A DNA stretch of 64,000 bases from Candidatus Omnitrophota bacterium (GCA_037131245.1 JBAXRK010000007.1:7226-71225), one strand, 5' to 3'. Positions 5,267 to 31,574 are shown, numbered from the stretch's first letter. Notes: generated by a model from the sequence alone, not told the origin. Translations and numbers: made by a program.

Positions 5267-6385
5267 ATGCGATTTCTTTTCTGCCTGATCGTGCTCTTGT
5301 TTGCTGGTGCCGCTTCCGTTAATGCGGCCGAATCCGCCGCTTGTCCGGTGGGGAGTTCCTGTTCGGATAATTTACCGACCGCGATCGCGGCGGCTTTCAG
5401 CTCGATCAACTGGGATACCTTTACGATCCCTTCTCCGACCTGCCTGGCGGATTGTAGTTGTACGCCAGTCACTGATACGATGCAGTTGGTATGCCTGAGG
5501 GTTAGGGATATGAGGGTTGATGCGATCTATAATTCGATTGCTACCTCGATCGCTGCTGACCCGACGATCTATGGGACAGTTGCCGCCACCGCGAGCAGTA
5601 ACATAACGGCGGCTTTCTCCGGTTTGACTACTCAGGATCAGGCGAAGGCTGCAACGTTGACGCCTAATTTGGTGACCTGGTGGAATTTTAAGATGTGCCG
5701 CAATCAATCGGTTTGTTATGTCTCTGGGGCGCCGGTCGCGGATGGAACCAAACTTCCGGCATCGGTCAATACCCTTGCGGCGTGCAATAATTATAACGGT
5801 ACCGGTTTGTGTGTTAATGCGATGGTTAAACCGAGTTTGACCGCTTCCTGCACCGGGACGCCGACTTTGCTCAATACCAAAGCGAGTCCTGCTAAGGATG
5901 CATGCGTTATTTTAAGCTCCTCAGCTTTTGATCTGACAGCCTTCAATGACTACTATACACTGACCTGCCCGGCGGATAATACGTGCCAGAATGTTCCTCC
6001 GACCGATCCGAGCTATGCCACCAAATTTATTTCGCAGGATACAGTAGCCGGTCTGTTGGCTTTGGCGGAAGGCAATCGCTATGGTGCCGCTAAATATTGC
6101 GAGGATTATGTCCGCGATTATGTGCATGCTCAGGTGCCGGCCGATATATGGACCCCAGCCCGGTATCAATTGATATGGAATTGTAAAATAGCTTTCGGCC
6201 CAGCGGGAACGCGGGATCAGTTGAAAGCGGATATCACCAAATGGGAAGAGAAGGTGTGTGATATGACCTGCGATTCGACGACGGCTCATCCTTATACGAT
6301 CGTTGATACGAGTGTGAAGGATTTTTGTACGGGGACACCGGATACGTATCCCTGGCCTTTGCTGATCGATTACAGTTTGCTGTGA
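5267..6385 (+). CDS. Secreted cysteine-rich protein, unknown function
   Basis: The Sec-type signal peptide is MRFLFCLIVLLFAGAASVNA/AE. The mature part has about 19 Cys (hand count). It is rich in Thr/Ala/Asn/Pro and I recognise no domain. Confidence 0.6.
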   Translation: MRFLFCLIVLLFAGAASVNAAESAACPVGSSCSDNLPTAIAAAFSSINWDTFTIPSPTCLADCSCTPVTDTMQLVCLRVRDMRVDAIYNSIATSIAADPTIYGTVAATASSNITAAFSGLTTQDQAKAATLTPNLVTWWNFKMCRNQSVCYVSGAPVADGTKLPASVNTLAACNNYNGTGLCVNAMVKPSLTASCTGTPTLLNTKASPAKDACVILSSSAFDLTAFNDYYTLTCPADNTCQNVPPTDPSYATKFISQDTVAGLLALAEGNRYGAAKYCEDYVRDYVHAQVPADIWTPARYQLIWNCKIAFGPAGTRDQLKADITKWEEKVCDMTCDSTTAHPYTIVDTSVKDFCTGTPDTYPWPLLIDYSLL

Positions 6386-6401: not shown

Positions 6402-6704
6402 ATGGTGATCTCGTTACAGAAAGAAGTTTATCCTCCTGAAGCGGTGCTTCAGGCGTGTTATCAGTTCCTTGAGAAAGCGTATTTCTTTATTGATCTTGAC
6501 GCGTCGGGGCAGGTGATCAGGGTCCATATTTCCCGGAAAACCGGGCCGCTTAACAAGGCGTTCAAAAATGTTTTTCTGGAAGAGTTGCTGCATTCTTCGC
6601 TGCGGTTCCAGCTGGCCCGTCGTAATCGCAAACTGCGAGAGTTCATCGTTGGCAGTGCTTTGTTTTCCCGTGATGCCGCGGCCGGAAAGAAACATGTCAA
6701 ATAA
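6402..6704 (+). CDS. hxsD: HxsD-like small protein (His-Xaa-Ser system accessory protein), copy 1
   Basis: It is 100 aa. KEVYPPEAVLQACYQF lies near the N-terminus. ELLHSSLRF sits where the TIGR03976 family carries its LLNDYxLRE signature (from memory). It is immediately upstream of the paired rSAM maturases. Confidence 0.5.
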   Translation: MVISLQKEVYPPEAVLQACYQFLEKAYFFIDLDASGQVIRVHISRKTGPLNKAFKNVFLEELLHSSLRFQLARRNRKLREFIVGSALFSRDAAAGKKHVK

Positions 6705-6921
6705 TAAGCCGGGAACCTGGCGTTTGCTATTTGATAAAAGGGTCTACCCGCTGCGCGCGGTGAAGGCGGCGGCTGATGACTTTTCGCATTTGGGGCGCTT
6801 TGCTGTCCGTCCGGTTCAAGGAATGATCGAAGTGAGCGCTCAGGTGCCAGCGGACGCTTCGCCATCATTGCGTGCGGAGTTCGCGAATTACGCGCTGGGG
6901 GCCGTATGCCAGGGCCGTTGA
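6694..6921 (+). CDS. HxsD-like small protein, copy 2 (divergent paralogue)
   Basis: ATG 6694 overlaps the upstream stop by 11 nt. KRVYPLRAVKAAADDF parallels KEVYPPEAVLQACYQF of copy 1. The C-terminal EFANYALG resembles the DYxL part of the family signature. Confidence 0.45.
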   Translation: MSNNKPGTWRLLFDKRVYPLRAVKAAADDFSHLGRFAVRPVQGMIEVSAQVPADASPSLRAEFANYALGAVCQGR

Positions 6922-8360
6922 AAGGGTTGGAACCCTACGCTTATTTTCGTTTCAGGAAGTTGGGGCGCTCGGTATTGCTGACCAATGAAACGGGTGAGTT
7001 CCAGCATGTGACCCCGGCCCAGTTTGCCGCCATGTCCGCCGGTAAGCTTAAAGCCCTGTTCCCGGACACGTACCAGGCGCTGCGGGACAAGAATTTTGTC
7101 AGGTCTGTTCTTTCAAAGCAAAAAGTAGCCGAACGTTACGCCGGAAAATATTTTGTCGGCGAGGGGTCCAGCCTGCATATTGTGGTCTTAACGCTGCGCT
7201 GCGACCAGGCCTGTGTGTATTGCCATGCCAGCGCGCAGTGCGGCGGTGGCCATGGGCTTGATATGCCGCTTGAGCTGGGCCGCCGGGTGGTTGAGAAGAT
7301 CTTTGAGTCACCATCGCCGACGCTCAGCATTGAGTTCCAGGGCGGCGAGCCGTTGTTGAATTTTGGGGTCCTCAAGGATATTGTCCTGCGGGCCAGTCGT
7401 AAAGCCGCCAGCGGCCAAAGGCCGGTTTCTTTTTCGGTGGTTTCCAATCTGGCGCCGTTGACGGATGAGATGTATCGGTTCTTTCTCAAGCATCATGTTC
7501 AGGTCTGTACATCTCTTGACGGGCCGAAGTGGCTTCATGACCTTCAGCGGCCGCGGGCTGACGGGCGCTCGTCGCACGGGATCGTGACGCGCGGTTTAAA
7601 ACGGCTCGCGACTCGCAAGGATGGGCGTAATGCGTCGTCTCTGCTGACGGTCACCCGCCGCAGTTTGCCCTACTACCGGGAGATCGTTGACGAGTATGTG
7701 AAGCAGGGCATGACGGTCATTCATTTGCGGCCGCTCAATCCTTTGGGCGCGGCGAAGAAAAAGACCGGGTCGATCGGGTATTCAGCGGAAGCATTTGTTA
7801 AGTTCTACCGGCAGGCTCTGGATCATATTTTGTCGCTCAATCGTCAGGGGCGTTTTTTATCTGAGCGCACGGCAGTGATCTATCTGACCAAGATCCTGAC
7901 CAGCACGGACCCGCGATACCTGGACTTGCGGTCGCCCTGCGGGGCGGGGATCGGGCAGGTCGTGTACAATCATGATGGTGATGTGTACACATGTGATGAG
8001 GGGCGGATGCTAGGCACGGCGGGCGATCCGGCGTTTCGGATAGGGCCGCTCGCGTCGTTCTCCTTTAAAACGCTGGGCGATAGCCCGGTGGTCAAGGCGT
8101 GTTGTACCGCGTCGTGCCTTGAGGTCGTGCCGGGTTGTTCCGAGTGCGCGTACAAGCCTTATTGCGGTGTGTGCCCGGTGCTTAACCACGCGATCGGCGG
8201 AAATGTGTTCCGGTCAGCGTCTTTTGTTTGCGAGATAAAAAAAGGGATCCTCGATCATTTGTTCGCAAGGCTCGAGGACCCGCGGGACAGGAAAATATTT
8301 TATCGATGGATCAATGCGCCAAGCGAGGAGGCCAAAGATGGCAAGCAAGAAAAAGGTTAA
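6906..8360 (+). CDS. hxsB: Radical-SAM/SPASM maturase, HxsB-like
   Basis: It is 484 aa. The N-terminal YAYFRFRKLGRSVLLTNETGEFQHVTPAQF precedes the core. The motif is CDQACVYC, followed by FQGGEPLL. C-terminal Cys clusters are CGAGIGQ...YTCDEG and CSECAYKPYCGVCP (SPASM-like). Assignment to HxsB rather than HxsC rests on length and memory only. Confidence 0.55.
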   Translation: MPGPLKGLEPYAYFRFRKLGRSVLLTNETGEFQHVTPAQFAAMSAGKLKALFPDTYQALRDKNFVRSVLSKQKVAERYAGKYFVGEGSSLHIVVLTLRCDQACVYCHASAQCGGGHGLDMPLELGRRVVEKIFESPSPTLSIEFQGGEPLLNFGVLKDIVLRASRKAASGQRPVSFSVVSNLAPLTDEMYRFFLKHHVQVCTSLDGPKWLHDLQRPRADGRSSHGIVTRGLKRLATRKDGRNASSLLTVTRRSLPYYREIVDEYVKQGMTVIHLRPLNPLGAAKKKTGSIGYSAEAFVKFYRQALDHILSLNRQGRFLSERTAVIYLTKILTSTDPRYLDLRSPCGAGIGQVVYNHDGDVYTCDEGRMLGTAGDPAFRIGPLASFSFKTLGDSPVVKACCTASCLEVVPGCSECAYKPYCGVCPVLNHAIGGNVFRSASFVCEIKKGILDHLFARLEDPRDRKIFYRWINAPSEEAKDGKQEKG

Positions 8361-8649
8361 AAAAGCGGGCGTGATCCCAAGGATATCTAAAGGGGTCAAG
8401 GATTTCATGATGGATGAGGAAGGCAAGATCAAAAAGAAGGACATCGCCAAGCTGGGTGTGTCGATGGCCGCGCTGGGCATGATGGTGCATTCGGACGCGG
8501 CGGCCGACGTGACCTGCCCCTATATCACCTCGGATTCGCATTCCAATGCCCTGGTCCTGCCGGTAGCACCCAAGACCTGCTATGAGCACGCGAACACGCA
8601 TACGAATCATTGTAATCATTCGAGCCATAGTGTGGGTGGTTGGTGCTAA
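8338..8649 (+). CDS. hxsA: HxsA-like precursor peptide/protein with C-terminal His-x-Asn/Ser repeat and 4 Cys
   Basis: ATG 8338 lies 5 nt after GAGGAGG, inside the 3' end of the upstream maturase gene. The 103-aa product ends ...CYEHANTHTNHCNHSSHSVGGWC. The stop overlaps the start of the next rSAM gene. Alternative internal starts at 8407/8410 would give a classical Sec signal peptide. Confidence 0.6.
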   Translation: MASKKKVKKAGVIPRISKGVKDFMMDEEGKIKKKDIAKLGVSMAALGMMVHSDAAADVTCPYITSDSHSNALVLPVAPKTCYEHANTHTNHCNHSSHSVGGWC

Positions 8650-9761
8650 AAGCCGCTCAGAAAGAGCTGCAGATCTTTTTGACCGATCGCTGTCAGTTGT
8701 CTTGCCGGTACTGCTATCTTGACCGCCGTGCAAAAAAAGACCTGTCCTGGCCCCTGGTCAAGAAAGCAGTCACGGATTTTTTGGATGGGGCGTCAGCCCC
8801 CCGGGTTGTTTCATTCTATGGCGGCGAACCGCTGCTTTCGTTCCCTCTTTTCAAACGCACTGTTGAGTTCATCCGTCGCGATCATTCGCCGGCGGATGTT
8901 TTTCTTTATCTGGCGACGAACGGGATCCGGGTTGACCGGAAGGTTGCGGCTTTCTGCGCGGCGCAGGCGGTCACGGTTTTGCTGAGTTTCGACGGCCGCC
9001 GTGACCGGCATGATGGCCAGCGTTGCGGTGCTGTGGAGAGCAGTTACGATGCCGCCCGGTCGGCGCTCAAGCATTTGCAAAAAGCGCGTGTTCCGGTGAT
9101 CGCGAATATGGTGATCCGGCCGCAGGATGCCTCGTCCTGGGTAGATGATCTTAAGCATGTGGTCGGTTGTGGTTTCACGCAGGTCCAGTTGCTCCCGGAT
9201 GCGGCGGCCATCTGGTCAACGGTTGAGATCAACCGTTTCGCCCGGTCGCAGCGGGATTTTGTTAGGATGAACATCGATCATTTCACCCGGAAAGGGGCGA
9301 GTGTTTTTACGGTCGAGCAGGTGCGCCGTTTGATCTCATTACGCGATAACCGGGGGGCATGCGGTTGCAATAAACGCATCTTGTCTGCCGATGGAAAATA
9401 TTATGCCTGTGATAAGGCGCTGGCTTGTTCTTCTGATGGCCGTCAGCCGTATGCGACCGGAGATGCCCTGGCAGGGTTTGACGCGGATGGCCGCCGGAAG
9501 ATCATCGGCCGGCTTGATCGCCGGGTAAAAGCCGCAGAACGCGGCAGGCGTTGTGCGGCTTGCCGCTGGCGTGAGGTATGTTTTTGTCCTTTGGGCCTTC
9601 CCGTGTTGAGCGGGGTAGATCCGGACCTTGGTCAGCGCTGGAATTCTTTTTGCCGCATCTCGGACCTGCTGCTGACCTCCTGCCGGCAGATCGTCCTGAA
9701 ATTAAAGGATGAGCCGCGCTTTTGCCGGGCGTACCAACTTAGGCCGGACGCGCCGGCCTGA
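8640..9761 (+). CDS. hxsC: Radical-SAM/SPASM maturase, HxsC-like
   Basis: It is 373 aa. The motif is CQLSCRYC, followed by FYGGEPLL. C-terminal clusters are CGCNKRILSADGKYYACD and CAACRWREVCFCPLG (SPASM-like). It is paired with the upstream maturase across the precursor gene. The start codon (TTG 8640 or GTG 8643) is uncertain. Confidence 0.55.
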   Translation: MVLKAAQKELQIFLTDRCQLSCRYCYLDRRAKKDLSWPLVKKAVTDFLDGASAPRVVSFYGGEPLLSFPLFKRTVEFIRRDHSPADVFLYLATNGIRVDRKVAAFCAAQAVTVLLSFDGRRDRHDGQRCGAVESSYDAARSALKHLQKARVPVIANMVIRPQDASSWVDDLKHVVGCGFTQVQLLPDAAAIWSTVEINRFARSQRDFVRMNIDHFTRKGASVFTVEQVRRLISLRDNRGACGCNKRILSADGKYYACDKALACSSDGRQPYATGDALAGFDADGRRKIIGRLDRRVKAAERGRRCAACRWREVCFCPLGLPVLSGVDPDLGQRWNSFCRISDLLLTSCRQIVLKLKDEPRFCRAYQLRPDAPA

Positions 9762-9776: not shown

Positions 9777-10514
9777 ATGGCTATTACCGGAAAACTATTA
9801 GTGATCGATCTCGACGGCCGTTGTAACTGCCGTTGTGTTTTTTGCCTTAAAGAGGACGCTATCCTGACCGCGCCGCGCCGTACCTTGGCCGGGACGCTGA
9901 CGCAGATCCGCCAGGGCATTACCGCCGGCATCGACAGTGTGGATTTTTTCGGTGGTGAACCGACCATGTATCCTTTCCTCAAGAAAGCAGTTGTCTTCAC
10001 GCAGCGGAAGGGATTAAAGGCTTTTCTGGCTACGAACGCGATCGCCTTTTCTTCAAAGGCCTACACGACAGCATTTTTTAAAGGTCTCAAGCCTTTAGCC
10101 GTACGGACCACGCTGCATAGCCATCACGCTGACGTGCATGAGCGGATCACCCGGACGCCCGGCAGTTGGGCCCGGACCATCAAGGGGATAGGCCATTTGC
10201 TGGCGGCCAATGAGCAGGTCACGGTGAACATTGTGATCAATCGCTGGAATTATCGCGAGCTGGTCGCGTGGACCCGGTTCCTGTACGGGCTCGGGGTGCG
10301 TTCCGTGAAATATTCGGCCCTGCAGCACACCGGCGGTGCTTTGGCTTGCGAGGAATTGTGGGTGGGAGATAAACAATACGCGGCCCCGTTACTGAAGGCG
10401 TTGCGCGCAGCATCGAAATTAGGCTTTTATTTTATTGAACTCGAAATGATCCCCGGGCCTGTCGTAGACAAAGCCCGGGGAATGAAGATCAATTGCCACA
10501 GCCGAAGACCCTGA
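9777..10514 (+). CDS. Small radical-SAM enzyme (core domain only)
   Basis: The motif is CNCRCVFC (CxxxCxxC), followed by FFGGEPTM. It is 245 aa with no auxiliary Cys cluster. It is the last gene of the + strand block. Confidence 0.65.
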   Translation: MAITGKLLVIDLDGRCNCRCVFCLKEDAILTAPRRTLAGTLTQIRQGITAGIDSVDFFGGEPTMYPFLKKAVVFTQRKGLKAFLATNAIAFSSKAYTTAFFKGLKPLAVRTTLHSHHADVHERITRTPGSWARTIKGIGHLLAANEQVTVNIVINRWNYRELVAWTRFLYGLGVRSVKYSALQHTGGALACEELWVGDKQYAAPLLKALRAASKLGFYFIELEMIPGPVVDKARGMKINCHSRRP

Positions 10515-12093
10515 AATAGAGGTCCTTGTAGTTACAGGCAAACTTCGCAGGCATCGGGATCTTGTCGGTCATTGGCAGGATCTTGTAGCAGTAAGCGATC
10601 TGCCCTTTGCGGTCCGTTATTTTGTGTTCGTCATCCATGCAATCATAGAACGGTTTGTCGAGTTGCCTGATCGGCGGAACATTGTCTGAGGTGGCTTGGT
10701 AACAGATGGTCCCGTCCTTGGAAAAACATATCCCGATATAGCCGCACACATCAGTGGTCGGATTGGGCGGGCAGATCGCCGGGTCTTCCTGTGAATCGCA
10801 AAGTTTATCACCTTGCACGACAGTCCAGGTAGAGGTCCAGTTCTTGTTGGTAGTATCCGGCCACCAACCGTACCAGCACGCATTCTGTGTGCAGCTTTCA
10901 TTTTCATGCAGCCCGTTAGCGCCCTCAACGTTGGGTGAATACCCTCCGGGACAGGTCCGTTCGCAATAACGATCGGGTGAGCATTGCCCGGTGGCCCCGT
11001 AATTTTTCAAATAGACGTAGTGATTACGATAGGCGTTAATTTTTTCTTGAATGCCTGTTTCGACATATTTGGTCAGGACCCGGTATGGATTGTGATTCGC
11101 TTGCATTGCTATGACCCGGTGCGCCTGAAGCAGGTCCATGTTCGCCGGAGTGGGCGGGAGGGTTGCCATATTCGGCGGATTATCACCCGCATTGGCCGCG
11201 CTCTGGCGGTAAATAACTTCTTTCACCAATTGCCAGCGCTGCGGTATGGAAAGACTATCGTCGTTCTCCAGGCTCATGGCATTTTCGTTAACGTTATGGG
11301 TATCGTCTTCCAAGGTCGTTGAATTAGAGATAATGGTACAAGGCTTTGAGTGCGGGTAAGGATATTGCCAGCAGGAAGGCAGGCAGTTCTGTTCGGTTTC
11401 ACCGCCGAAGCCGTCATGCTTACAGCCGTAAATGGTGTCGGGTGTTGACGGGTGAAGGGCATTGGCGCATTGTTTCGAGTAAATCCGTTCCCCGATCGCG
11501 CAGTCTTTGGTGTCATAAGTCCCCAGGCCGGCTTGAGTCTGGGTGCATGTTCCGATCGGATTAGCGAACTCGCCATTAAAGCGCGCGTCGACCGCGGACC
11601 GGACAGGGTTGCATAGGTTTGCGGCCGAGGGCGCGATCCCGGTGGCCGCCAGGATCTTGGTGCCGCAGCCGACCGGTTTAGCTTCGGTGCAACAGGTTTC
11701 ATCAGGGATCCAGGCTTCTTCCTGGGCGCATTTCAACGGGGTGCATGTGCGGTAATAGTAGCGCATGGTCGGCTTGTTCTTATCCGCGCCGCAATCGCCT
11801 TTGGTCCAGGTATTGATGATCGCCTTCTTCCAGTCGTTATAGTGGGTGGTTTGGTCGGGAAGCGTGACCGGATTGGCCGAACATTTGCAGCTTTTGGGTG
11901 TCAGGGACGGGTCGAGCGTGCTATCTTGTTCGATCTTTTCAGAGGTGGCATCCTTGACGCTTTCTTCGGTCAGCTTGAAATAACCCTGAACCCCTTTGAG
12001 GAGCATGGGGCCGCCGATCGCAATACCGGCCAGGATGATCGTGGCAAGCAGGATATATTCAAGAGCGGATTGGCCTTTTTTCATCAAGCGCAT
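10489..12093 (-). CDS. Flp/class-III-signal prepilin-like N-terminus fused to a ~500-aa cysteine-rich extracellular domain
   Basis: The preferred start is ATG 12093, with GAGG 5 nt upstream. The N-terminus is MRLMKKG/QSALEYILLATIILAGIAIGG, which fits the G/XXXXEY prepilin signature plus a hydrophobic helix. The rest has about 30 Cys by hand count. The 3' end overlaps the convergent rSAM gene by 26 nt. Confidence 0.6.
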   Translation of the reverse strand: MRLMKKGQSALEYILLATIILAGIAIGGPMLLKGVQGYFKLTEESVKDATSEKIEQDSTLDPSLTPKSCKCSANPVTLPDQTTHYNDWKKAIINTWTKGDCGADKNKPTMRYYYRTCTPLKCAQEEAWIPDETCCTEAKPVGCGTKILAATGIAPSAANLCNPVRSAVDARFNGEFANPIGTCTQTQAGLGTYDTKDCAIGERIYSKQCANALHPSTPDTIYGCKHDGFGGETEQNCLPSCWQYPYPHSKPCTIISNSTTLEDDTHNVNENAMSLENDDSLSIPQRWQLVKEVIYRQSAANAGDNPPNMATLPPTPANMDLLQAHRVIAMQANHNPYRVLTKYVETGIQEKINAYRNHYVYLKNYGATGQCSPDRYCERTCPGGYSPNVEGANGLHENESCTQNACWYGWWPDTTNKNWTSTWTVVQGDKLCDSQEDPAICPPNPTTDVCGYIGICFSKDGTICYQATSDNVPPIRQLDKPFYDCMDDEHKITDRKGQIAYCYKILPMTDKIPMPAKFACNYKDLYFRVFGCGN

Positions 12094-12129
12094 AAGGACC
12101 TCTAAGGGGTTTATCAAATGGTCGCTTTA

Positions 12130-12158
12130 AGTATAAAAGACAAAGACCCAATTAGCAA
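12130..12158 (-). promoter_or_regulatory. Sigma70-like promoter TTGCTA-N17-TATACT for the pilin-like gene
   Basis: Read on the minus strand: the -35 is the complement of 12153-12158 and the -10 is the complement of 12130-12135. The spacer is exactly 17 nt. Confidence 0.5.
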
Positions 12159-12191
12159 GATTTTGATTATAAATCAACGGGGTAATTCTGC

Positions 12192-12220
12192 TTGACGAAA
12201 AAAAAGTCGTAGGATATACT
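12192..12220 (+). promoter_or_regulatory. Sigma70-like promoter TTGACG-N17-TATACT upstream of glmU
   Basis: The hexamers are at 12192-12197 and 12215-12220 with a 17-nt spacer. It lies about 79 nt upstream of the glmU ATG. Confidence 0.55.
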
Positions 12221-12298: not shown

Positions 12299-13555
12299 AT
12301 GGGAAAAAATTTAAAGACTATTGTTCTGGCGGCAGGCAAGGGCACGCGCTTCAAGTCTGCTACGCCGAAGGTTTTGCATTGCCTTGCCGGTAAGCCCGCC
12401 TTGCATTATGTGCTGGATGTGGCGGAAGCGGTTGGTTCTTTGACAACGTATGTGGTGGTTGGCCATCAGGCCGAGCTGGTCGCGCAAGCGGTAGGCGGTC
12501 GGGCGGCGATCGTTGAACAGCGGCAGCAGTTGGGCACCGGTCATGCGGTCAAAATGTGCGCGCCTCATTTTAAGAGCGCTGACGGCACGGTCCTGGTGAT
12601 GTGCGGTGATACGCCGCTGCTTGATAAAGCTATTGTGCGCCGTCTGGCGCAGAAACATGAAAAGACCGGCGCGGCGGTCACGGTATTGACCTGCCTCTTG
12701 GCCGAGCCTTCGGGGTATGGCCGTATCATTCGTGACGCGCGGGGCAGGTTTGCGGCGATCCGCGAGCATAAGGACGCTTCGGCCCAAGAGCTTGCGATCC
12801 GTGAGATCAATACGGGCGTTTACTGTTTCAAGGCTAAAGAACTGTTCGGCGCGATCGGTGAGATCCGGCCGAACTCCAAGAAGAAGGAATATTATCTTAC
12901 CGATATTATTGAGTTGTTCCTGGGGCGCGGCCTGGGTGTTGAAACCCTGGTCACGGATGACTGGACCGCCAATCTTGGGCTTAATACCCGTGCCGACCTG
13001 GCTTTATCCGAGGCGATCCTTCGGAAAAAGATCCTGGGCCGGTTGATGCTTGGCGGGGTTACGGTTGTTGATCCTGCGACCACGTACGTAGAAAATGATG
13101 TTGTGATCGGGCAGGATACTGTTATTTATCCTTGCACTTATATTCATCATGACGTCCGGGTCGGACGCGGTTGTTCCCTCGGCCCTTTTGCCCGGTTACG
13201 TCCGGGTACCAGGTTGGGGAATGGCGTTTCAGTGGGGAATTTTACGGAAGTTTCCCGCTCGGTCCTGGGTGATGATGTGAACATGAAGCATTTTAGTTTT
13301 CTGGGGGACACGTCGGTCGGGCGCGGCGCGAATATCGGCTGCGGGACGGTCACCGCGAATTACGATGGAAAAACCAAGAACAAGACTTCGATCGGTCCCG
13401 GCGCGTTCATCGGCTGTGACACGGTCCTGGTCGCTCCGGTCAAGATCGGTAAAGGGTCCAAGGTCGGTGCCGGCAGCGTGGTAACGGCGGGGCGTGATGT
13501 TCCCGCTGGTAAACTGGCGGTCGGGATGCCGGCCAGGGTCATTAAAAAGGTATAG
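12299..13555 (+). CDS. glmU: Bifunctional UDP-N-acetylglucosamine pyrophosphorylase / glucosamine-1-phosphate N-acetyltransferase
   Basis: The N-terminal LAAGKGTRF nucleotidyltransferase motif is present. The C-terminus has left-handed beta-helix hexapeptide repeats. Confidence 0.85.
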   Translation: MGKNLKTIVLAAGKGTRFKSATPKVLHCLAGKPALHYVLDVAEAVGSLTTYVVVGHQAELVAQAVGGRAAIVEQRQQLGTGHAVKMCAPHFKSADGTVLVMCGDTPLLDKAIVRRLAQKHEKTGAAVTVLTCLLAEPSGYGRIIRDARGRFAAIREHKDASAQELAIREINTGVYCFKAKELFGAIGEIRPNSKKKEYYLTDIIELFLGRGLGVETLVTDDWTANLGLNTRADLALSEAILRKKILGRLMLGGVTVVDPATTYVENDVVIGQDTVIYPCTYIHHDVRVGRGCSLGPFARLRPGTRLGNGVSVGNFTEVSRSVLGDDVNMKHFSFLGDTSVGRGANIGCGTVTANYDGKTKNKTSIGPGAFIGCDTVLVAPVKIGKGSKVGAGSVVTAGRDVPAGKLAVGMPARVIKKV

Positions 13556-13559
13556 GATT

Positions 13560-14510
13560 ATGAGCGAGATCTGCGTCCTTTCGGGCAATGCGAATAAAGA
13601 GCTGGCAGAGAAAATCTGCAAGTGCCTGGATATTCCTCTGGCGGAAGTGGTTTGTACCCGTTTTAGTGAGGGAGAGATCCGTGTTCAGATCGTTGAGAAT
13701 GTGCGCGGCAAGGACCTGTTCATTATCCAGCCGACCTGCACGCCGACGAACGATAATTTGATGGAGTTATTGATCCTGATCGATGCTGCCAAGCGCGCGT
13801 CGGCCAAGCGCATTACGGCTGTTATCCCGTTCTATGGATACGCGCGCCAGGACCGCAAGGATCAGCCGCGGGTTCCGATCACAGCTAAGCTGGTGGCGAA
13901 TCTGATCACGGCAGCTGGTGTTGACCGGGTTCTGGCGATGGATCTTCATGCCAGCCAGATCCAGGGGTTCTTTGATATCCCGGTAGATCATCTGTACGCT
14001 ATTAATACGCTGTGCGAATATTTTGAAGCGATGAACATGAAGAACCTGGTGGTCGTTTCTCCCGATGTCGGCGGCATTCGCATGGCGCGCGCGTATGCCA
14101 AACGCCTGGGGGCGGGATTGGCCATCATCGACAAGCGCCGCATGAGCCCTGAAGAGACCGAAGTGATGAATATTCTTGGTAAGGTTAAGGGCAAAACCGC
14201 GGTGCTGGTGGACGATATCGTGGCGACGGGTGGATCGCTCACTGAGGCTATTACGGCGCTTAGTGAGGTTGGCGTCGAGAAAGTTTATGCCGCGGTCAGC
14301 CATGGCGTCCTTTCGGGGCCGGCGGTGGAGCGGATGGCGGAGTGCAAGGCGCTTGAAGAGCTGGTGGTGACGGATAGTATCCCGCTCAGCGCGAAGGCAA
14401 AAAAAGTTTCCAAGATCAAGCAGCTGACGGTCGCGCCGCTTTTGGCGGAAGCGATCAAGCGAATTCATAACGAACAGTCGATCAGCTGCCTGTTCGAAGT
14501 TAATCGGTAG
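13560..14510 (+). CDS. prs: Ribose-phosphate pyrophosphokinase
   Basis: The internal ATG 13560 gives MSEICVLSGNANKELAEKI. Also present are YARQDRK, DLHA.QIQGFF and the PRPP-binding loop VLVDDIVATGGS. Confidence 0.9.
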   Translation: MSEICVLSGNANKELAEKICKCLDIPLAEVVCTRFSEGEIRVQIVENVRGKDLFIIQPTCTPTNDNLMELLILIDAAKRASAKRITAVIPFYGYARQDRKDQPRVPITAKLVANLITAAGVDRVLAMDLHASQIQGFFDIPVDHLYAINTLCEYFEAMNMKNLVVVSPDVGGIRMARAYAKRLGAGLAIIDKRRMSPEETEVMNILGKVKGKTAVLVDDIVATGGSLTEAITALSEVGVEKVYAAVSHGVLSGPAVERMAECKALEELVVTDSIPLSAKAKKVSKIKQLTVAPLLAEAIKRIHNEQSISCLFEVNR

Positions 14511-14535
14511 TTTTTACAAAAGGCGGATGTAGATT

Positions 14536-15258
14536 ATGGAACAGATCAAGTTGGAGTTGCAGGTCAGAGGCGAAGAAGGTTCCGGTGAAGTTAAGGTCCT
14601 GCGTAAAGCGGGTTTTATTCCGGCGGTGGTCTATGGCGGGGCGGAGAAGCCCCTTTCGGTGAAATTGATGCGTAAGGATTTCGACCGGATCATGCGCGAA
14701 CATCATGGTGAAAGTATCCTTTTCCAGGTCGAGATCATCGACGGCGGGAAAAAGGCCGGGAATTGCATCGCTCTCGCCAAAGAGACGTACTACAATCCGG
14801 TGAGTGATGTGGTCGATCATATTGATTTTCAGCGGATCTCGATGGACAAGGAGATCGCGTTCCGGGTGGCGATCCTGGTCAAGGGTGAAGCGATCGGGCT
14901 CAAGAAGCCGGGCGCCACGCTTGAGCACGGGTTGCGTGAATTGGAAGTGATCTGTTTGCCGAAGGATATCCCGCATCATATTGAGGTTGATGTGACGGAT
15001 CTTGATACGCATCACGCGATCCACGTTAGTGACCTGAAGCTTGGGTCCGGCGTGCGCACCAAGATGGATCCGGGCGCGGTCGTGGTGGCGGTGGTATTCT
15101 CGAGTCGTGAAGAAGCTCCTGCGGCAGCGGATGCGGCAGCGGCAGCGGCGCCGACACTTGAGGTTATTAAAGAGAAGCCCAAGGATGCTGCGGCAGAAGC
15201 GGCGCCTGGCGCGAAGCCGGCGGCTGGCGCGGCCAAGCCAGCGGCTCCTAAGAAATAA
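14536..15258 (+). CDS. rplY: Ribosomal protein L25 / general stress protein Ctc, with Ala/Pro/Lys-rich C-terminal tail
   Basis: The LRKAGFIPAVVYGG motif and the two-domain Ctc form are present. It sits in the conserved prs-ctc-pth order. Confidence 0.85.
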   Translation: MEQIKLELQVRGEEGSGEVKVLRKAGFIPAVVYGGAEKPLSVKLMRKDFDRIMREHHGESILFQVEIIDGGKKAGNCIALAKETYYNPVSDVVDHIDFQRISMDKEIAFRVAILVKGEAIGLKKPGATLEHGLRELEVICLPKDIPHHIEVDVTDLDTHHAIHVSDLKLGSGVRTKMDPGAVVVAVVFSSREEAPAAADAAAAAAPTLEVIKEKPKDAAAEAAPGAKPAAGAAKPAAPKK

Positions 15259-15270
15259 GGGAGTGTTGTT

Positions 15271-15852
15271 TTGGGGCTATCGACGTTGCTGGTCGGCCTG
15301 GGGAATCCCGGCCGGCAGTATGAAATGACACGGCATAATATTGGGTTCATGGTCGTGATGGAAGTGGCCCGTTCTGCCGGGGTCGAGTGGAAAAAGAGCC
15401 GCCAGGCTTCGGCGCTGGTGGCGGAGTTGGGGACGGTTGGGCTGGTTTTACCCCTGACATTTATGAATTGTTCGGGGCAAGCAGTTCGCGATATCGCTCA
15501 GTTCAATAAAGTTGGTCCTGCTGATATTCTGGCGGTGGTAGATGATATCAGGCTTGATTTTGGGGTGATGCGCCTGAAGCTGGACGGCTCAGATGGCGGG
15601 CATAATGGCCTGAAGTCCATCGCGGCTGAAATGGGGACTTTCGCCTATCCCCGCTTGCGCCTGGGGGTTGGAGCGCCACCTCCGGGAGTTGATCAGGCGA
15701 ATTACGTTCTTTCAGAGTTCAGTGCCCGGGATAAAAAAGATCTTGGGCTTTTTGTGGCGGATGCGGCCGATTGCTGCCGTCTTTGGATGAAGGGCGAGAT
15801 GTCCCGGGCAATGACGCAATACAATCAAGTAAAAAAGGAAAAAGCACAATGA
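15271..15852 (+). CDS. pth: Peptidyl-tRNA hydrolase
   Basis: Motifs are LLVGLGNPG..Y..TRHNIGF and GGHNGLKS. The start is TTG. Confidence 0.9.
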   Translation: MGLSTLLVGLGNPGRQYEMTRHNIGFMVVMEVARSAGVEWKKSRQASALVAELGTVGLVLPLTFMNCSGQAVRDIAQFNKVGPADILAVVDDIRLDFGVMRLKLDGSDGGHNGLKSIAAEMGTFAYPRLRLGVGAPPPGVDQANYVLSEFSARDKKDLGLFVADAADCCRLWMKGEMSRAMTQYNQVKKEKAQ

Positions 15853-16154
15853 ACAAGTATGAATTGGTTTTTATCGTGGATTCCCGTCTTTCCGACGCGG
15901 AGAAAAGCGATGTGAGCAAGCAGGTGACCGACCTTGTGGCCAAGATGGAAGGGAAGATCATCAACTCCAGCGTTTGGGTCGAGCGTCAGCGGATGGCGTT
16001 CCCGATCAATAAAGCGGCGGAAGGGACCTATTACTTGTTCAATATCGAAATGAAGGGCGCTGAAGTGGCCCGTTTACGCCGTGAACTGTTGATCAATGAG
16101 CGGGTGATGCGCTTTTTGATCATTCGTCCGGAAGAGCAGAAGGTCAAGGCGTAA
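15849..16154 (+). CDS. rpsF: Ribosomal protein S6
   Basis: ATG 15849 forms an ATGA overlap with the pth stop. The product begins MNKYELVFIV. It sits in the rpsF-ssb-rpsR-rplI order. Confidence 0.9.
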   Translation: MNKYELVFIVDSRLSDAEKSDVSKQVTDLVAKMEGKIINSSVWVERQRMAFPINKAAEGTYYLFNIEMKGAEVARLRRELLINERVMRFLIIRPEEQKVKA

Positions 16155-26679: not shown

Positions 26680-26722
26680 ATTGTTTTTCTCTGAGAAAAG
26701 ATTTTGAGGAAAAACAATGCTG
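26676..26722 (-). other. 14-bp stem pairing the tRNA-Leu 3' end plus trailer (CAGCATTGTTTTTC) with a downstream complement
   Basis: Arms 26676-26689 and 26709-26722 are perfectly complementary. The right arm includes the last 5 nt of the tRNA. The left arm overlaps the previous hairpin by 4 nt. Confidence 0.6.
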
Positions 26723-26800
26723 GAGGTGGGACTCGAACCCACACACCCGTTAAGATATCGGTTTTTGAGACCGACGCGTATACCGTTCCGCCACTCCAGC
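26718..26800 (-). tRNA. tRNA-Leu (anticodon CAA), long variable arm, no encoded CCA
   Basis: The reverse complement GCTGGAGTGGCGGAACGG...TCGGTCTCAAAAACCGA...GTGGGTTCGAGTCCCACCTCCAGCA folds as a cloverleaf. The anticodon loop is CTCAAAA. Confidence 0.9.
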
Positions 26801-26825
26801 AATATCACAAAATAAGCAGGACTAC

Positions 26826-26854: not shown

Positions 26855-27068
26855 GAGTGTTCTTAGCAATAAATCAGCGTTTTAATTTTTCCACCGATTT
26901 TGCCCCAAATCGTGTTATTTAGACTAAATCCCCTTCATCTTCATGGCTTTACGATAATTAGCCATCTTTAGGCAAGAAAACGCTTTCCCTTATAACGCCT
27001 CGTTGCCCCCGTTTCCCCCTATTAATATTGTAAACTTATCTAGTAGTGTCCTTGGCAAGGGAAGGGTT

Positions 27069-30000
27069 ATGAACAATTTTGGCGTATATAAAAATTTGAT
27101 CCTGCGCAGGGTTGTGGCGTCTTTAGTGCTGTTGGCATTTTTGCTGACCAGCGTGATCGCGCCCGGCCACTATGCTTATGCCCAGGCGGCTTTTCAACTT
27201 CCCGCGGCGGGCACGCGGATCGATTTTAGCCCGTCTTTTACGCCGCCGGTCCTCAAGGGTATTAAGGTTTATCCGGAGAATCCTTTTCGTTTCGATTTTA
27301 TCCTTGATAAGGGGAACTCCCCGGACGTTGGCGACGCAATAAAAGATGAATCGCTCCGGCTGGTTAAATATTTTATGGCGTCGCTCACCGTGCCCGAGAA
27401 AGACCTTTGGGTCAACTTGTCGCCCTATGAAAAGGACCGCATTGTGCCGGAGGCTTTCGGCCAGACGGAAATGGGGCGCGATATCCTGGCGCAGGATTAC
27501 ATTCTTAAACAGATCACCGCGTCGGCCATTTACCCGGAAGGGGATACCGGCAAGAAATTCTGGGCCAGGGTGTATCAGCTTGCGTCGGAGAAGTATGGCA
27601 CCACGGATATCCCGCTCGACACCTTCAATAAGGTTTGGATCGTTCCGCAGAAAGCCGTGGTTTATGAGAACGCGGCAAGCGGTACAGCTTATATCGTTGA
27701 GAGCAAGTTAAAGGTCATGCTGGAGAGCGATTATCTGGCGCTGGAGAAGAATGCCGGCCTTGCCGCGGCGCCTCAGGTTGATCCAAGGGTAAATGAGAGC
27801 CAGGAATTGGCCAAGAATGTTATTCGCGATATTGTCCTGCCTTTGTTGGAGCGGGAAGTTAACGAGGGTGGTAACTTTATCAGGCTAAGGCAAGTGTTCC
27901 AGTCGCTTATTTTGGCGGCCTGGTATAAAAAGAAGATCAAGGACAGCCTTCTGTCGCAGGTTTACTCGGATAAGAACAAGATAAGTGGTGTGAGTATAGA
28001 CGACCCAAAGGAAGCCGAGAAAATCTGGGCGCAGTATGTGGAGGCGTTCAAGAAGGGCGTTTACAACTACATCAAGGAAGAGAAAGATCCGCTGACGGAT
28101 GAATTGATCCCGAGAAAGTATTTCTCCGGCGGAGTGATCTTAACGTTGGATCCAGATGGCGCTCAATCGGTTCTTGAGATCAAGGAAGGTGCGGCGAACA
28201 GGCCTGGGGGCTCATTAAATAATGCGTCGCAAAATGTTCTGTCAGTTTTTTTTAAACCATTCTTTAGACCCAATAGTTCCCCAAAGAGTGTTCAGGCGGA
28301 AATGCAGCCAGTAGCGGCTCCGGTTGTCGAGCCTGTTCTTTCAGATGAAGACAGGTCATTGTTGAAAGATCAAGAAATCTTTAGGCAACTATATGACGGG
28401 AAGATCGGTTCGATAGCGGACATGTGGCGTGAAGTTGAGTACAGGATCCAGGAACACCCTGCTTTTCGTGCAATGTTCATAGGGAATGAACTGACTGATC
28501 AGGCGCGCTCTTTTTTCCTGGATGTCCTGGCAGACCCGAGCTTGGAGTATCGCGATATCGCGTTTGATAAGCTAGGTAAGACCGTTATTTTTAATCGCAA
28601 GGATATCAGTTCAACCCATCGCGAGGCGGTGCTGGAGTATACACTGCGCATGGCCGGGACACTTTCAATTGATGAATTGCGGAAAGCGCTTCCGGATGTT
28701 TTGTCCGGCATGAGATTGGCCTTTTCGGCCGGAAAACAGCTTGATTCTTACCTTGCGGTTTTAATAAAGATGGGCCCGGAGGCCGCGGATGCCGCCAAGG
28801 AGTTGACTTTGATTCTTGACGGGGGGATCTCTTCGCCAGGCCCGATCTATAAGGCCCTGGCTCACATTGGCTCGACAGAAGCTGTTGATAAGATCGAGGA
28901 GGGATTGAAGGACGCCCGCCCTGAAAGAGTGAAGGGAGCGGTTGAGGCTCTTAGGGATGTTCGTTTAAATTCTCCGGGAGAAGTGTTACCAAAGACTTTG
29001 GTTGATTTGTTTAGAAAGCATGTCAGGGAGAGTTCCGAGTTGTTGTTGCTCACAACACAGGCCGTGAGAATGGTCAATCATCTTTTTACCATAGAAGAAG
29101 CTAAATTGATGGATTTGTTGGGGAGTAGAGAAAATATTGAAAAATTCTACGCCCTACCCTCGGAGTTCCAGGCTGCCGTGAGGCAACAGACTGAGGTTTC
29201 TTTGGCGCAGGGGTTGTTGCAGTTTATTGTCGAGGTACGAAAGAATCCGTACAAATCAACGACTATTGACCTGATCAGATCAATGTGGGTCCTCCCACCA
29301 GGGTTGATAGCCGGCTTGTTTATTGATCTTCTTTCAAATTCCCCAAGAGAACCACTGCGCAAGATCAAAGACGATGCCCGTGGAAAGTTGCTGGAAGAAT
29401 TTATCTCGCGTGTCATGAACAAGGATGCCGAGGGATTCAAAACATTGCTCTGGGACCGTTTAAAAGATGACCAAAAGGATATGATCAGGGAGTATATCAA
29501 GTCCTTTGCGCACATTCGTTTAAATATTCATCAACTTGAGTTAATGTTCCCGGAAACGATAGGGCAATTAAGCAGTCCCGCCGTTGATTACATTGATACG
29601 AAGGAGCTTGTGAATAAGAGTGAAGTTGAGGAACTCAAGGAGCGATTTAAAGATGCGCAGATAGAGGTCCATGAACCAAATAATAGAAATCAGGATGAAG
29701 TGGAGACAGCGATCATGGGTATTGCGAGCGACATTACCAGGCCCATGTTTAAGTCTTCAGAAGAACTTATAGAATTCAAGAAGAGCCTGCAGGCTGATTT
29801 TTTGACATCTCACAGTCATGCCCGGGTTATTTTACTAAGAGATAGTCCTTCAGGAAAAGTAATTGCTTATGCTATTTACAAAATGGACGCCGGAGATGAA
29901 GGTATATTTGCTGGTTATTTAAGCCATCTTGCTGCAGATAAACAATACATAGGTGCCGGCGGAATCCTGCTTGCGTATGCCGTTAAGAATATGCGAGATA

Positions 30001-30476
30001 TGGGTCTGTTAAGTGCGGTTTACAAGCCGGTCAATAGTGCGGTGGTGGTTGGGTTTTATGATCGATGGGTTCAAAAGAGGCAGGAATCCTCGGAAAGTAA
30101 GGTTATGGTAAAAGGCTTTAGTAATGAAAAGGGCGATGGCAATTATAGTCTTAATTTTCCTGAGTATGGTGATTATGAAAAACGCTGGGACAATGCTCCA
30201 GACATGAGGGAGTCGGAGAAAAGTTCAACCGCGCCCGTGACTGAAAAAGGCGCAAATGTGGCTACGACTGAAGATAATGCTGCAGCGGCAAACGGCGGTA
30301 TCGACTTAGCGCCGGATATGATGGACCTTCAGGTGAAGAATGGTTCTGGCGCGATCAAATTCAATTTCGATCCCGCGATGATCGAGCAAATGCAGAACGC
30401 CCCCGGATTTACTCCCGAGATCCTCGACATGCACCCGTTGAATAGCGTGCAGACCTTCTTAGGTTTGTCTGAATAG
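27069..30476 (+). CDS. Large (1135 aa) membrane-anchored/secreted protein: conserved N-terminal domain, HEAT-like repeats, GNAT-like motif, conserved-looking C-terminal tail
   Basis: ATG 27069 follows GGGAAGGG. The N-terminal hydrophobic segment is VVASLVLLAFLLTSVIAPGHYAYA. HEAT/PBS-lyase-like ALAHIGSTEAVDKIEEGLKDARPERVKGAVEALRDV is present. QYIGAG (nt 29942-29959) fits GNAT motif A (Q/R-x-x-G-x-G/A). GC drops from about 63% (5' part) to 35-42% (3' part) by hand counts. Confidence 0.6.
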   Translation: MNNFGVYKNLILRRVVASLVLLAFLLTSVIAPGHYAYAQAAFQLPAAGTRIDFSPSFTPPVLKGIKVYPENPFRFDFILDKGNSPDVGDAIKDESLRLVKYFMASLTVPEKDLWVNLSPYEKDRIVPEAFGQTEMGRDILAQDYILKQITASAIYPEGDTGKKFWARVYQLASEKYGTTDIPLDTFNKVWIVPQKAVVYENAASGTAYIVESKLKVMLESDYLALEKNAGLAAAPQVDPRVNESQELAKNVIRDIVLPLLEREVNEGGNFIRLRQVFQSLILAAWYKKKIKDSLLSQVYSDKNKISGVSIDDPKEAEKIWAQYVEAFKKGVYNYIKEEKDPLTDELIPRKYFSGGVILTLDPDGAQSVLEIKEGAANRPGGSLNNASQNVLSVFFKPFFRPNSSPKSVQAEMQPVAAPVVEPVLSDEDRSLLKDQEIFRQLYDGKIGSIADMWREVEYRIQEHPAFRAMFIGNELTDQARSFFLDVLADPSLEYRDIAFDKLGKTVIFNRKDISSTHREAVLEYTLRMAGTLSIDELRKALPDVLSGMRLAFSAGKQLDSYLAVLIKMGPEAADAAKELTLILDGGISSPGPIYKALAHIGSTEAVDKIEEGLKDARPERVKGAVEALRDVRLNSPGEVLPKTLVDLFRKHVRESSELLLLTTQAVRMVNHLFTIEEAKLMDLLGSRENIEKFYALPSEFQAAVRQQTEVSLAQGLLQFIVEVRKNPYKSTTIDLIRSMWVLPPGLIAGLFIDLLSNSPREPLRKIKDDARGKLLEEFISRVMNKDAEGFKTLLWDRLKDDQKDMIREYIKSFAHIRLNIHQLELMFPETIGQLSSPAVDYIDTKELVNKSEVEELKERFKDAQIEVHEPNNRNQDEVETAIMGIASDITRPMFKSSEELIEFKKSLQADFLTSHSHARVILLRDSPSGKVIAYAIYKMDAGDEGIFAGYLSHLAADKQYIGAGGILLAYAVKNMRDMGLLSAVYKPVNSAVVVGFYDRWVQKRQESSESKVMVKGFSNEKGDGNYSLNFPEYGDYEKRWDNAPDMRESEKSSTAPVTEKGANVATTEDNAAAANGGIDLAPDMMDLQVKNGSGAIKFNFDPAMIEQMQNAPGFTPEILDMHPLNSVQTFLGLSE

Positions 30477-31504: not shown

Positions 31505-31574
31505 AGCTGAGGGGGATCGAACCCCTGACCTCCTGAATGCCATTCAGGCGCTCTCCCAGCTGAGCTACAGCCCC
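31499..31574 (-). tRNA. tRNA-Ala (anticodon GGC), CCA encoded
   Basis: The reverse complement is GGGGCTGTAGCTCAGCTGGGAGAGCGCCTGAATGGCATTCAGGAGGTCAGGGGTTCGATCCCCCTCAGCTCCACCA. The anticodon loop is ATGGCAT. Confidence 0.92.

Follow-up and report, generated by a model that had tools for sequence, protein, structure and literature searches.

A probable modular type IV pilin-like protein with a cysteine-rich ectodomain in a Candidatus Omnitrophota bacterium

Type IV pilins that carry a large C-terminal module are already known as a kind: such modular pilins, which include PilB and PilC of S. sanguinis as well as CofB, TcpB, ComZ and GspK, are proteins of 45-50 kDa (PMC8179133). In archaea, the Epd pilins of Methanococcus maripaludis are described by PF04021 (Class_IIIsignal/DUF361) (PMC4390842, PMC3875500), and pilins of the EppA type need Gln at the first position of the mature protein (+1) to be processed, with EppA acting on them as the second peptidase of the FlaK/EppA pair (PMC4390842). 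The Omnitrophota are uncultured, mostly ultra-small bacteria that are suspected of living attached to other cells or of preying on them; pili are their main suspected contact organelles, and genes for type IVa pili (T4aP) are reported to be common in several of their classes (PMC10066038). Here we describe a gene in a 64-kb stretch of a Candidatus Omnitrophota contig (64,000 nucleotides; hereafter the window) whose 534-residue product probably combines a prepilin-type N-terminus with a large cysteine-rich ectodomain. The gene occupies 10489..12093 on the minus strand (P0001), and its product matches at 100% a protein of a Candidatus Omnitrophota metagenome-assembled genome (MAG) that is annotated as a hypothetical protein (NCBI WCO69_03990). 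Coordinates are positions in the window unless another locus is named by an L number. Within the searchable literature, we came across no account of this protein family, of its signal type, or of the embedding of an A24 peptidase gene in radical SAM (rSAM) operons that is reported below.

The coding sequence runs from an ATG at 12093 to a TGA at 10489-10491, and we take this ATG as the start because the ATGCGC that opens the gene is invariant in four orthologous loci. By direct reading, a Shine-Dalgarno-like AGAGG lies 5 nucleotides upstream of it (12099..12103, minus strand). The product contains 30 Cys (5.6%) and is also rich in Thr, Pro, Asn, Tyr and Trp. Its N-terminus reads MRLMKKG/QSALEYILLATIILAGIAIGGPMLLKGVQGYFKLTEESVKDATSE, where the slash marks the cut that the family alignment predicts for a prepilin peptidase, i.e., after Gly7 of a leader peptide spanning M1-G7 (12073..12093, minus strand). 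The segment that follows, Q8-Q56 (11926..12072, minus strand), resembles the alpha1 helix of pilins: it has Glu at +5 of the predicted mature protein (E12), Tyr at +6, a hydrophobic stretch at positions +7 to +20, Gly at +21 (G28) and Pro at +22 (P29), and it ends in the amphipathic conserved part LLKGVQGYFKLTEESVKDATSE. In type IV pilins, alpha1 is typically marked by Glu at +5 and Pro at +22 on a helix-like stretch some 50 residues long. Across the six reading frames of the 64 kb, this N-terminus is the sole place where a G-x4-E-[aromatic/aliphatic] motif is combined with a hydrophobic run. The initial annotation of this stretch had described the same open reading frame (ORF) and start, about 30 Cys, and the same leader and motif, and all of these are as it stated (534 residues, 30 Cys, MRLMKKG/QSALEYILLATIILAGIAIGGP).

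The signature is the most constant feature of a diverse family. When 1.84 billion cluster representatives (clusters at 50% identity) were searched exhaustively with a profile, 249 relatives of 60-830 residues were recovered at E <=1e-3, and 67 at E <=1e-10; most relatives align just to profile positions 1 to ~140-250. The family thus amounts to no fewer than 249 clusters at 50% identity, nearly all of them here from MAGs that carry an Omnitrophota label; a few of the locus MAGs are labelled Planctomycetales or Vampirovibrionales. A word-indexed search, by comparison, recovered just three relatives (37-50% identical to the protein), and a 33-sequence N-terminal profile used in the same kind of search returned 3 proteins. 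We scored the N-terminal signature in the 143 readable N-termini among the 150 best-listed of the 249 relatives, which are at 50% identity or below. The leader is 4-12 residues long and ends in Gly or Ala in 143/143; Gln occupies +1 in 142/143, Glu +5 in 143/143, Tyr +6 in 128/143, Gly +21 in 140/143 and Pro +22 in 131/143. In the alignments examined, Q8, E12 and P29 are invariant. Conservation is also strong beyond the hydrophobic run, with Y-V-L-R-S-V-N-A-H-F-K-L-W-D-D-S-V-Q-D-S-F-x-E-N-I-T-Q-A-P as the family consensus at mature positions 23-51, from which R26-S-x-N-A-H-F-K-L-W-D...D41-S...E45...Q49-A-P is kept after the Gly-Pro pair across the family. Because the buried Glu and the residues at -1 and +1 are invariant despite this divergence, the sequences favor a class III signal of the prepilin type over a plain signal anchor.

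The remainder of the protein evolves quickly. When the protein is aligned with its three close relatives, the first 52 residues are near-invariant and ~26 Cys are invariant, while overall identity is 37-50%; in the same genomes GlmU is 85-86% identical and the adjacent rSAM proteins 53-62%. The N-terminus excepted, the gene is therefore the fastest-evolving of its neighbourhood. A fast ectodomain joined to a constant N-terminus is what one typically sees in exposed proteins in which assembly or processing constrains one module.

Curated pilin models recognize this N-terminus poorly. The initial annotation had proposed comparing the first 40 residues with PF04964 (Flp_Fap); we used the first 60, which gave no match to that model at E up to 10. 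The best Pfam match was PF04021 Class_IIIsignal, at 16.7 bits for the first 60 residues and 9.1 bits for the full-length protein (gathering threshold 23.7). TIGR04205 gave 14.1 bits against a cut-off of 65, and the N_methyl models (PF07963/TIGR02532) did not match. No curated pilin family thus includes the protein itself at threshold. When 33 diverse members of the family were compared with the models at E <=0.1, nine of them matched Flp_Fap below threshold (best E = 8e-6) and two matched Class_IIIsignal. A metagenome scan further revealed many stand-alone proteins of 54-155 residues that align to the whole N-terminal module (e.g., MKKAQSILEYAILISIVVAALVGMHIYVQRAVQANLKMVEDRVNAEPAK), eight of which have a secretin gene 5-8 kb away. 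These small proteins, together with the sub-threshold Flp_Fap matches, indicate by sequence that the N-terminal module is homologous to small, Flp-sized pilin-like proteins. Genes for pilin-like proteins of 54-70 residues occur at L113 (2820-4400 and 10001-10147) and at seven metagenome loci like it, each with a secretin gene 5-8 kb upstream; two large ORFs that adjoin the small homologues of L113 had no match in the PDB.

We then asked which peptidase could process such a signal. As the initial annotation had noted, no A24 peptidase gene lies inside the 64-kb window; a 302-residue Peptidase_A24 homologue is encoded just outside it, 1.2 kb beyond the left edge (L005 5190-6098, i.e., 1.2-2.1 kb left of window position 1 in the same genome). 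The genome is therefore not devoid of a prepilin peptidase homologue, and the gene stands in the same operon as the rSAM genes that converge on the pilin-like gene. This operon starts 3.9 kb left of the window and encodes, in order, a PilZ-domain protein, a response regulator, an rSAM protein, the A24 homologue, two unknown proteins, two rSAM proteins, an SDR, a further rSAM protein, a PP-loop protein, a 372-residue Cys protein with a Sec signal, HxsD, HxsB, an HxsA-like peptide, an rSAM/SPASM protein and a final rSAM protein, after which the pilin-like gene follows in convergent orientation. The genes for the PilZ protein, the response regulator, the first rSAM protein and the A24 homologue lie at L005 3379-6098 (1.2-3.9 kb left of the window). 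In the metagenome locus L086 a PilZ gene directly abuts the pilin-like gene.

The A24 gene is conserved alongside the family. Orthologous 302-residue A24 genes lie two genes from the homologues of the pilin-like gene in L001 and L002, and L013 and L015 have more distant A24 genes (286-294 residues), placed within rSAM operons that adjoin family members. All five A24 proteins keep both catalytic Asp, in the motifs D23-x4-[RK]-I-x-N and G-D87-x-K-L-F, and a C-terminal (P/A)FA(P/G), and all five are without an N-terminal methyltransferase-type extension. With PF01478, the homologue of this genome scores 26.1 bits (gathering threshold 26.5) and its orthologues 28.7 and 30.0. At these A24 loci the family member is the sole ORF that combines G/A, Q/x at +1, Glu +5 and, behind these, 10 or more hydrophobic residues in a run. 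The closest described counterpart is the archaeal FlaK/EppA pair.

Pilus assembly genes are found beside relatives of the gene. We compared 24 Omnitrophota loci (the window genome, three orthologues and 20 from a genome scan). In nine of them a divergent arrangement puts the family gene directly beside pilM (PF11104, 124 bits), pilN, pilO, a 114-codon ORF and a secretin gene (PF00263, 166 bits), and in six further loci a small secretin-domain protein is encoded within 1-2 genes. None of the 24 carries tad genes. PilM, PilN and PilO are components of T4aP, not of Tad systems. Locus L023 carries a cluster of canonical minor-pilin-like ORFs (G|STLVEVLVS, A|FTVSELI; these lie 4-6 kb from its family gene) and a 430-codon ORF at 13256-16125 on the minus strand, 2-6 kb from the family gene overall, which suggests that ordinary type IV minor pilins coexist with the Cys-rich family.

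Behind the alpha1-like segment, the protein consists of three Cys-rich modules and a linker. Module 1 (residues 69-143; 11665..11889, minus strand) holds 8 Cys in the framework C.C...CG...R.C.P..C...C..D..CC...CG and is common to the whole family, for which the framework reads C.C...CG...C...R.C.P..C...C..D..CC...CG, followed by variable regions with 5-12% Cys. Among the 33 diverse relatives C69, C101 and C134 are invariant, and C71, C117, C122 and C135 are kept in at least 90%. Module 2 (residues 161-252; 11338..11613, minus strand) has 8 Cys as well and is found in a subset of relatives (those aligning as far as profile positions ~250-345). It is followed by a partly helical linker without Cys (residues 253-370; 10984..11337, minus strand), from which ~30 residues are deleted in two orthologues, and by module 3 (residues 371-532, 14 Cys; 10498..10983, minus strand), which is specific to the closest subgroup. 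The number of Cys is even in each module (8, 8 and 14), which fits intramodular disulfides. Pfam and NCBIfam searches with the full-length protein assigned no Pfam domain to this passenger and returned class III matches only, all below threshold.

The gene has a promoter of its own. A sigma-70-like promoter, TTGCTA-N17-TATACT, lies upstream at 12130..12158 (read 12158..12130 on the minus strand) and agrees with the consensus at 9/12 positions. The promoter scan by itself was at chance level (2 sites seen, 1.9 expected); both hexamers, however, are invariant or nearly so in four loci whose proteins are just 37-50% identical, and this conservation bears out the promoter proposed by the initial annotation. 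A divergent glmU promoter (TTGACG-N17-TATACT, 12192-12220) is likewise kept in the four orthologous loci. The two form a back-to-back promoter-like pair at 12130-12220, for the pilin-like gene (minus strand) and glmU (plus strand); both elements are nearly invariant across the four genomes, including the conserved block GTGGGATAGTATATCCTACGACTTTTTTTTCGTCAAG. At its other end the gene overlaps the last rSAM gene (9777..10514, plus strand) tail-to-tail by 26 nucleotides, the arrangement that had been described initially. Inside the 3' end of that convergent gene, 8 nucleotides past the stop codon, is a GC-rich, stable hairpin with no U-tract (10451..10480, minus strand; -28.8 kcal/mol, z = -6.1, as stable in 0/200 shuffles), which a consensus scan did not call a terminator. 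Convergent 3' overlaps of 26-38 nucleotides recur at other loci (10489-10514 here; L001 11563-11593; L004 11439-11476; L013 10985-11014) with a partner that varies by locus: an rSAM protein, a PP-loop protein or a DUF2334/deacetylase.

On balance, we favor the view that the product of this gene is a modular type IV pilin-like protein: it has a Flp/EppA-like G|Q...E5 signal, a T4a-like alpha1 with Pro at +22 and a hypervariable ectodomain of disulfide type. The hydrophobic N-terminal segment would insert the precursor into the inner membrane, and the A24 aspartic prepilin peptidase, a presumably dedicated enzyme without a methyltransferase part that is encoded in the adjoining rSAM operon, would cut it after Gly7. 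The mature protein would then begin at Gln8 and bear Glu at +5. It would serve a type IV pilus-like machine as a filament subunit, most plausibly as one of low abundance or at the tip; close relatives adjoin pilM-pilN-pilO-secretin genes. Its fast-evolving ectodomain of ~480 residues, three modules with 8, 8 and 14 presumably disulfide-bonded Cys, would be displayed as an adhesin or ligand-binding module.

Several observations weigh against this view. The protein reaches threshold on no pilin hidden Markov model (HMM). An AlphaFold2 (AF2) model from a 4-sequence alignment placed a helix over residues 10-50 with low confidence and was uninformative as to a pilin fold (pLDDT 31), and neither the N-terminus nor the family profiles nor the A24 protein retrieved a meaningful match from the PDB in sequence and profile searches. 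The A24 homologues score just around the Pfam threshold, and the pilin-like protein is their presumed substrate by gene position and motif. No tad, cpa or pil machinery is encoded in the 64-kb window, as the initial annotation had stated for tad/cpa genes, and no pilus machinery is found in the ~17 kb flanks of this genome; walking beyond the right edge gave housekeeping genes only. Finally, subunits of 300-830 residues are far above the size of known major pilins.

Some of these points would be accommodated if the class III signal were a cleavable membrane anchor and nothing else, so that the A24 peptidase processed an unpolymerised periplasmic or surface binding protein. Archaeal sugar-binding proteins do carry class III signals. 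The very large and variable ectodomains (300-830 residues) suit such a protein, no pilus ATPase or platform gene lies near the gene, and the separate minor-pilin-like ORFs of L023 (G|STLVE, A|FTVSE) allow for ordinary pilins that build the filament by themselves. What makes this reading unlikely, in our assessment, is the pattern of conservation: Glu +5, Pro +22 and the 50-residue helix segment are much more conserved than the rest of the protein, as packing into a filament core demands. The tight divergent linkage to pilMNO-secretin genes in nine loci argues in the same direction, and the stand-alone versions of 54-70 residues can hardly be anything but filament subunits.

The association with rSAM genes raises a different question, namely whether the protein is an enzyme substrate. 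All six rSAM matches in the window fall within the convergent operon, and there are none in the other 54 kb; we therefore rejected the idea that rSAM adjacency reflects a high background of such genes. The operon is of the Hxs (His-Xaa-Ser) type, most clearly so by its HxsB. Its window part includes genes for an HxsD-like protein (6402..6704, plus strand; TIGR03976, 49.3 bits with a cut-off of 50; PF27806) and for the rSAM/SPASM maturase HxsB (6906..8360, plus strand; TIGR03978, 476 bits with a cut-off of 370). Next comes a His-rich, HxsA-like precursor peptide with a Sec-like signal that ends in ...HANTHTNHCNHSSHSVGGWC (8314..8649, plus strand). This peptide probably starts at the second Met (about 8338) and has 100-113 residues; its His spacing is mostly H-x-x, with one strict H-x-S, and it is 68% identical to the ORF at the same position in L001 and 54% identical to that in L002. 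It is likely to be the substrate of HxsB and its partners within the operon. An rSAM/SPASM-type maturase that is PapB-like below threshold (8640..9761, plus strand) and the 245-residue rSAM protein that ends the operon (9777..10514, plus strand), which is weakly HxsC-like (67 bits with a cut-off of 268), complete the series. Sub-threshold matches also included TIGR03906 and NF047865, models that relate to QhpC/QhpD or to ranthipeptides and sactipeptides.

The linkage recurs in other genomes. Operons with at least two rSAM genes lie immediately downstream of, or converge on, a family member in nine of the 17 loci with at least 5 kb of downstream sequence, and these nine span two subfamilies that are ~30-35% identical. 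Against such a link, the metagenome contig L086 (Ga0172379_10016438) is a natural deletion or insertion variant: it is without the ~14-kb rSAM/A24/Hxs block and retains glmU and the pilin-like gene (38% identity, 25 Cys) together with PilZ, a hybrid-cluster protein, Fer4 and Rrf2, and seven other loci are without rSAM neighbours. Since L086 keeps the backbone genes but lacks the block, the rSAM/A24 block behaves as an insertable cassette whose link to the pilin-like gene is recurrent, not obligatory. The co-localisation with rSAM clusters, for which the initial annotation had proposed a survey, thus holds at nine of the 17 informative loci and is lacking at the others. In the larger subfamily the rSAM/SPASM genes occur in tandem together with genes for DUF2334/polysaccharide deacetylase, DegT aminotransferase, a GT28-rSAM fusion, APH-like kinases and Asn-synthase-like PP-loop proteins, which hints at glycan or small-molecule chemistry at least as much as at peptide cross-linking. 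In L006, L010, L011, L013, L015 and L016, up to four or five rSAM/SPASM genes encoding proteins of ~325 residues stand in tandem downstream of the family gene.

These data allow two proposals that involve rSAM chemistry. In the first, the pilin-like protein is itself an rSAM/SPASM substrate that acquires, e.g., thioether links in the manner of QhpC/QhpD or of ranthipeptides, with its 55-residue N-terminus as recognition leader and the A24 enzyme as leader peptidase. A constant leader before a hypervariable Cys-rich core does resemble the precursors of ribosomally synthesized and post-translationally modified peptides. Operons with two or more rSAM genes adjoin the family in two such distant subfamilies, the A24 gene is embedded in rSAM operons at five loci, and, this operon apart, rSAM genes are absent from 56 kb of this genome. 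Yet the operon has a conserved HxsA-like precursor of its own between HxsB and the next rSAM gene, which weakens the case for the pilin-like protein as substrate, and the pilin-like gene runs towards the operon from a conserved promoter of its own, so that it is not co-transcribed with the maturases. The gene also persists in L086 and at the seven loci mentioned above without rSAM neighbours, the DegT, GT28-fusion, DUF2334/deacetylase and APH-like kinase genes of the larger subfamily suggest glycan chemistry, and the even Cys counts per module fit disulfides. Pilins are normally inserted co-translationally, which would give cytoplasmic Fe-S enzymes little access. We therefore regard this proposal as improbable.

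In the second proposal, which is a long shot, the family represents a distinct Omnitrophota branch of type IV filament subunits whose hypervariable Cys-rich ectodomains are matured by a dedicated pathway, namely an EppA-like A24 peptidase embedded in multi-enzyme rSAM/SPASM operons. The rSAM enzymes of this pathway would cross-link the pilin, modify it in another way or make a glycan for it, before or during its export, so that the pilin would be matured by rSAM chemistry. The initial annotation had grouped a second Cys-rich protein with the pilin-like protein as a possible joint target of cross-linking, and this grouping was not borne out. The protein in question (372 residues, 19 Cys; 5267..6385, plus strand) carries a Sec signal of the ordinary kind (MRFLFCLIVLLFAGAASVNA/AE) and shows neither a class III motif nor any Pfam or NCBIfam match; it is unrelated in sequence to the pilin-like protein and has no counterpart in L001, L002 or L004. 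We thus rejected it as a partner.

The initial annotation had further assigned the protein to the Flp (Tad) pilins, and like the idea of rSAM cross-linking this label is only partly supported: the prepilin-type class III signal is supported, and membership in Flp/Tad proper is not. A bona fide Flp pilin with an adhesin attached would be assembled by a Tad machine (CpaF/TadBC/RcpA) after cleavage by a TadV/CpaA peptidase. The G/xxxxEY motif is present, some relatives and analogues from Collinsella match Flp_Fap below threshold, the small homologues are of Flp size, and Tad systems are reported from many Omnitrophota (PMC10066038). The protein itself, however, has no PF04964 match, and its relatives adjoin pilM, pilN and pilO, which are T4aP genes, with no tad genes in the 24 related loci, so that a Tad assignment is not supported. 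At 527 residues the mature protein is also far larger than a mature Flp pilin (~40-70 residues), and Pro +22 with the long alpha1C-like segment that follows are not features of Flp. The peptidase tells the same way, at ~300 residues against the ~150 of the TadV type. Taken together, this makes a Tad pilin a highly doubtful identity for the protein. Scarcely credible is an ordinary uncleaved signal anchor on a Cys-rich secreted or periplasmic protein with a coincidental motif, which would explain why the protein reaches no pilin HMM threshold and would leave a charged Glu in the anchor helix, a residue not conserved by chance, the invariance or near-invariance of Gln +1, Glu +5 and Pro +22 across 143 diverged relatives, and the linkage of the family to A24 and pilMNO-secretin genes to be accounted for.

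If the protein is a modular type IV pilin-like protein, as we favor, three aspects are new: a signal type that standard models overlook, a family of Cys-rich passengers, and a presumed peptidase encoded repeatedly inside rSAM operons. Members of the family are so far annotated as no more than hypothetical proteins and have no Pfam domain. Their pilin-type N-terminus, the hypervariable and Cys-rich exposed part and the pilMNO-secretin linkage make them evident candidates for the module by which Omnitrophota recognize hosts or surfaces. Because standard pilin models miss the G|Q...E5...P22 signal, pilin censuses in candidate phyla probably undercount. The non-canonical A24 enzymes in rSAM operons offer a lead on pilin maturation or on a new use of prepilin-type peptidases.

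Two other features of the window are recorded here. An ORF of 1157 codons at 27003-30476 (plus strand), probably shorter through use of an internal Met, encodes a protein with a signal-peptide-like N-terminus and no Pfam match, and is flanked by tRNA-Leu (26717-26801) and tRNA-Ala (31499-31574). At 54667-58756 (plus strand) lies an operon for a McsA-like protein (UVR), McsB (ATP:guanido phosphotransferase) and a ClpC-type AAA+ protein in this diderm Omnitrophota genome; the McsB/Clp arginine-kinase arrangement is best known from Firmicutes.

Among known systems, the pair QhpC/QhpD, in which a Cys-rich periplasmic subunit is thioether-cross-linked by an rSAM/SPASM enzyme, and the ranthipeptide and sactipeptide systems resemble the locus in that genes for rSAM/SPASM maturases and for a dedicated leader protease accompany the gene for an exported Cys-rich polypeptide. 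Unlike QhpC, the pilin-like protein is convergently transcribed and ten times larger, and the operon has an HxsA-like peptide of its own. A similar N-terminus was picked up by a genome scan in Collinsella, where proteins beginning RLRG|QSIIEYVLI...AGP (43-59% identical to the N-terminus of the family) are fused to a passenger of ~250 residues; one of them (L029 9947-10870) scores 30.0 bits with Flp_Fap against a gathering threshold of 32.2. That passenger is DUF6273, which has few Cys, the host is actinobacterial, and 784 kb of Collinsella loci gave no HMM matches for rSAM, A24, PilM or secretin. L029 carries two paralogues with a Flp-like G|QSIIEY...AGP N-terminus and DUF6273 (8172-9164 and 9947-10870) next to a two-component system, and there are ~55 further Collinsella loci; this gut actinobacterium thus apparently has modular proteins of Flp type.

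With the Flp/Fap and TadE/F/G pilins (PF04964, PF07811) the protein shares G/xxxxEY, Glu +5 and Tyr +6, and some family members and small stand-alone homologues match Flp_Fap below threshold; TadG-type pseudopilins are also large. Unlike Flp/Fap, it has no PF04964 match, carries Pro +22 and a long alpha1C-like region, has relatives with pilMNO and not tad nearby, and measures 534 residues against 50-80. Its likeness to EppA pilins lies in Gln +1, Glu +5 and a near QxSxExxxL-type motif, in PF04021 as its best, though sub-threshold, Pfam match, and in a presumed second, dedicated prepilin peptidase beside a general one. Unlike those pilins, it comes from a diderm bacterium, whose BamA and Lpx genes lie in the window, has Ser at +2 and not at +3, stays below threshold with PF04021, bears a huge Cys-rich passenger and has relatives neighboured by a bacterial PilMNO and secretin machinery.

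The modular type IV pilins are the remaining comparison. The initial annotation had set the size of the protein against the 50-80 residues of established Flp pilins; that large passengers would be without precedent is wrong, given the modular pilins (PMC8179133) and the Flp-like N-termini fused to DUF6273 in Collinsella. The signal of the protein is G|QSxxEY and not G|F/M-T-L-x-E, and models of the N_methyl/IPR012902 type miss it. In the protein, the three Cys-rich modules and the linker come after the class III signal and the segment resembling alpha1, and no IPR012902-type signature was detected. Its passenger is an unannotated Cys-rich array of disulfide type without a Pfam domain, and its peptidase is apparently a separate A24 paralogue distinct from PilD. 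In common with the modular pilins it has a short leader that ends in Gly, Glu at +5, a hydrophobic alpha1N and a large C-terminal module, which in those pilins is thought to be displayed at the tip for adhesion.

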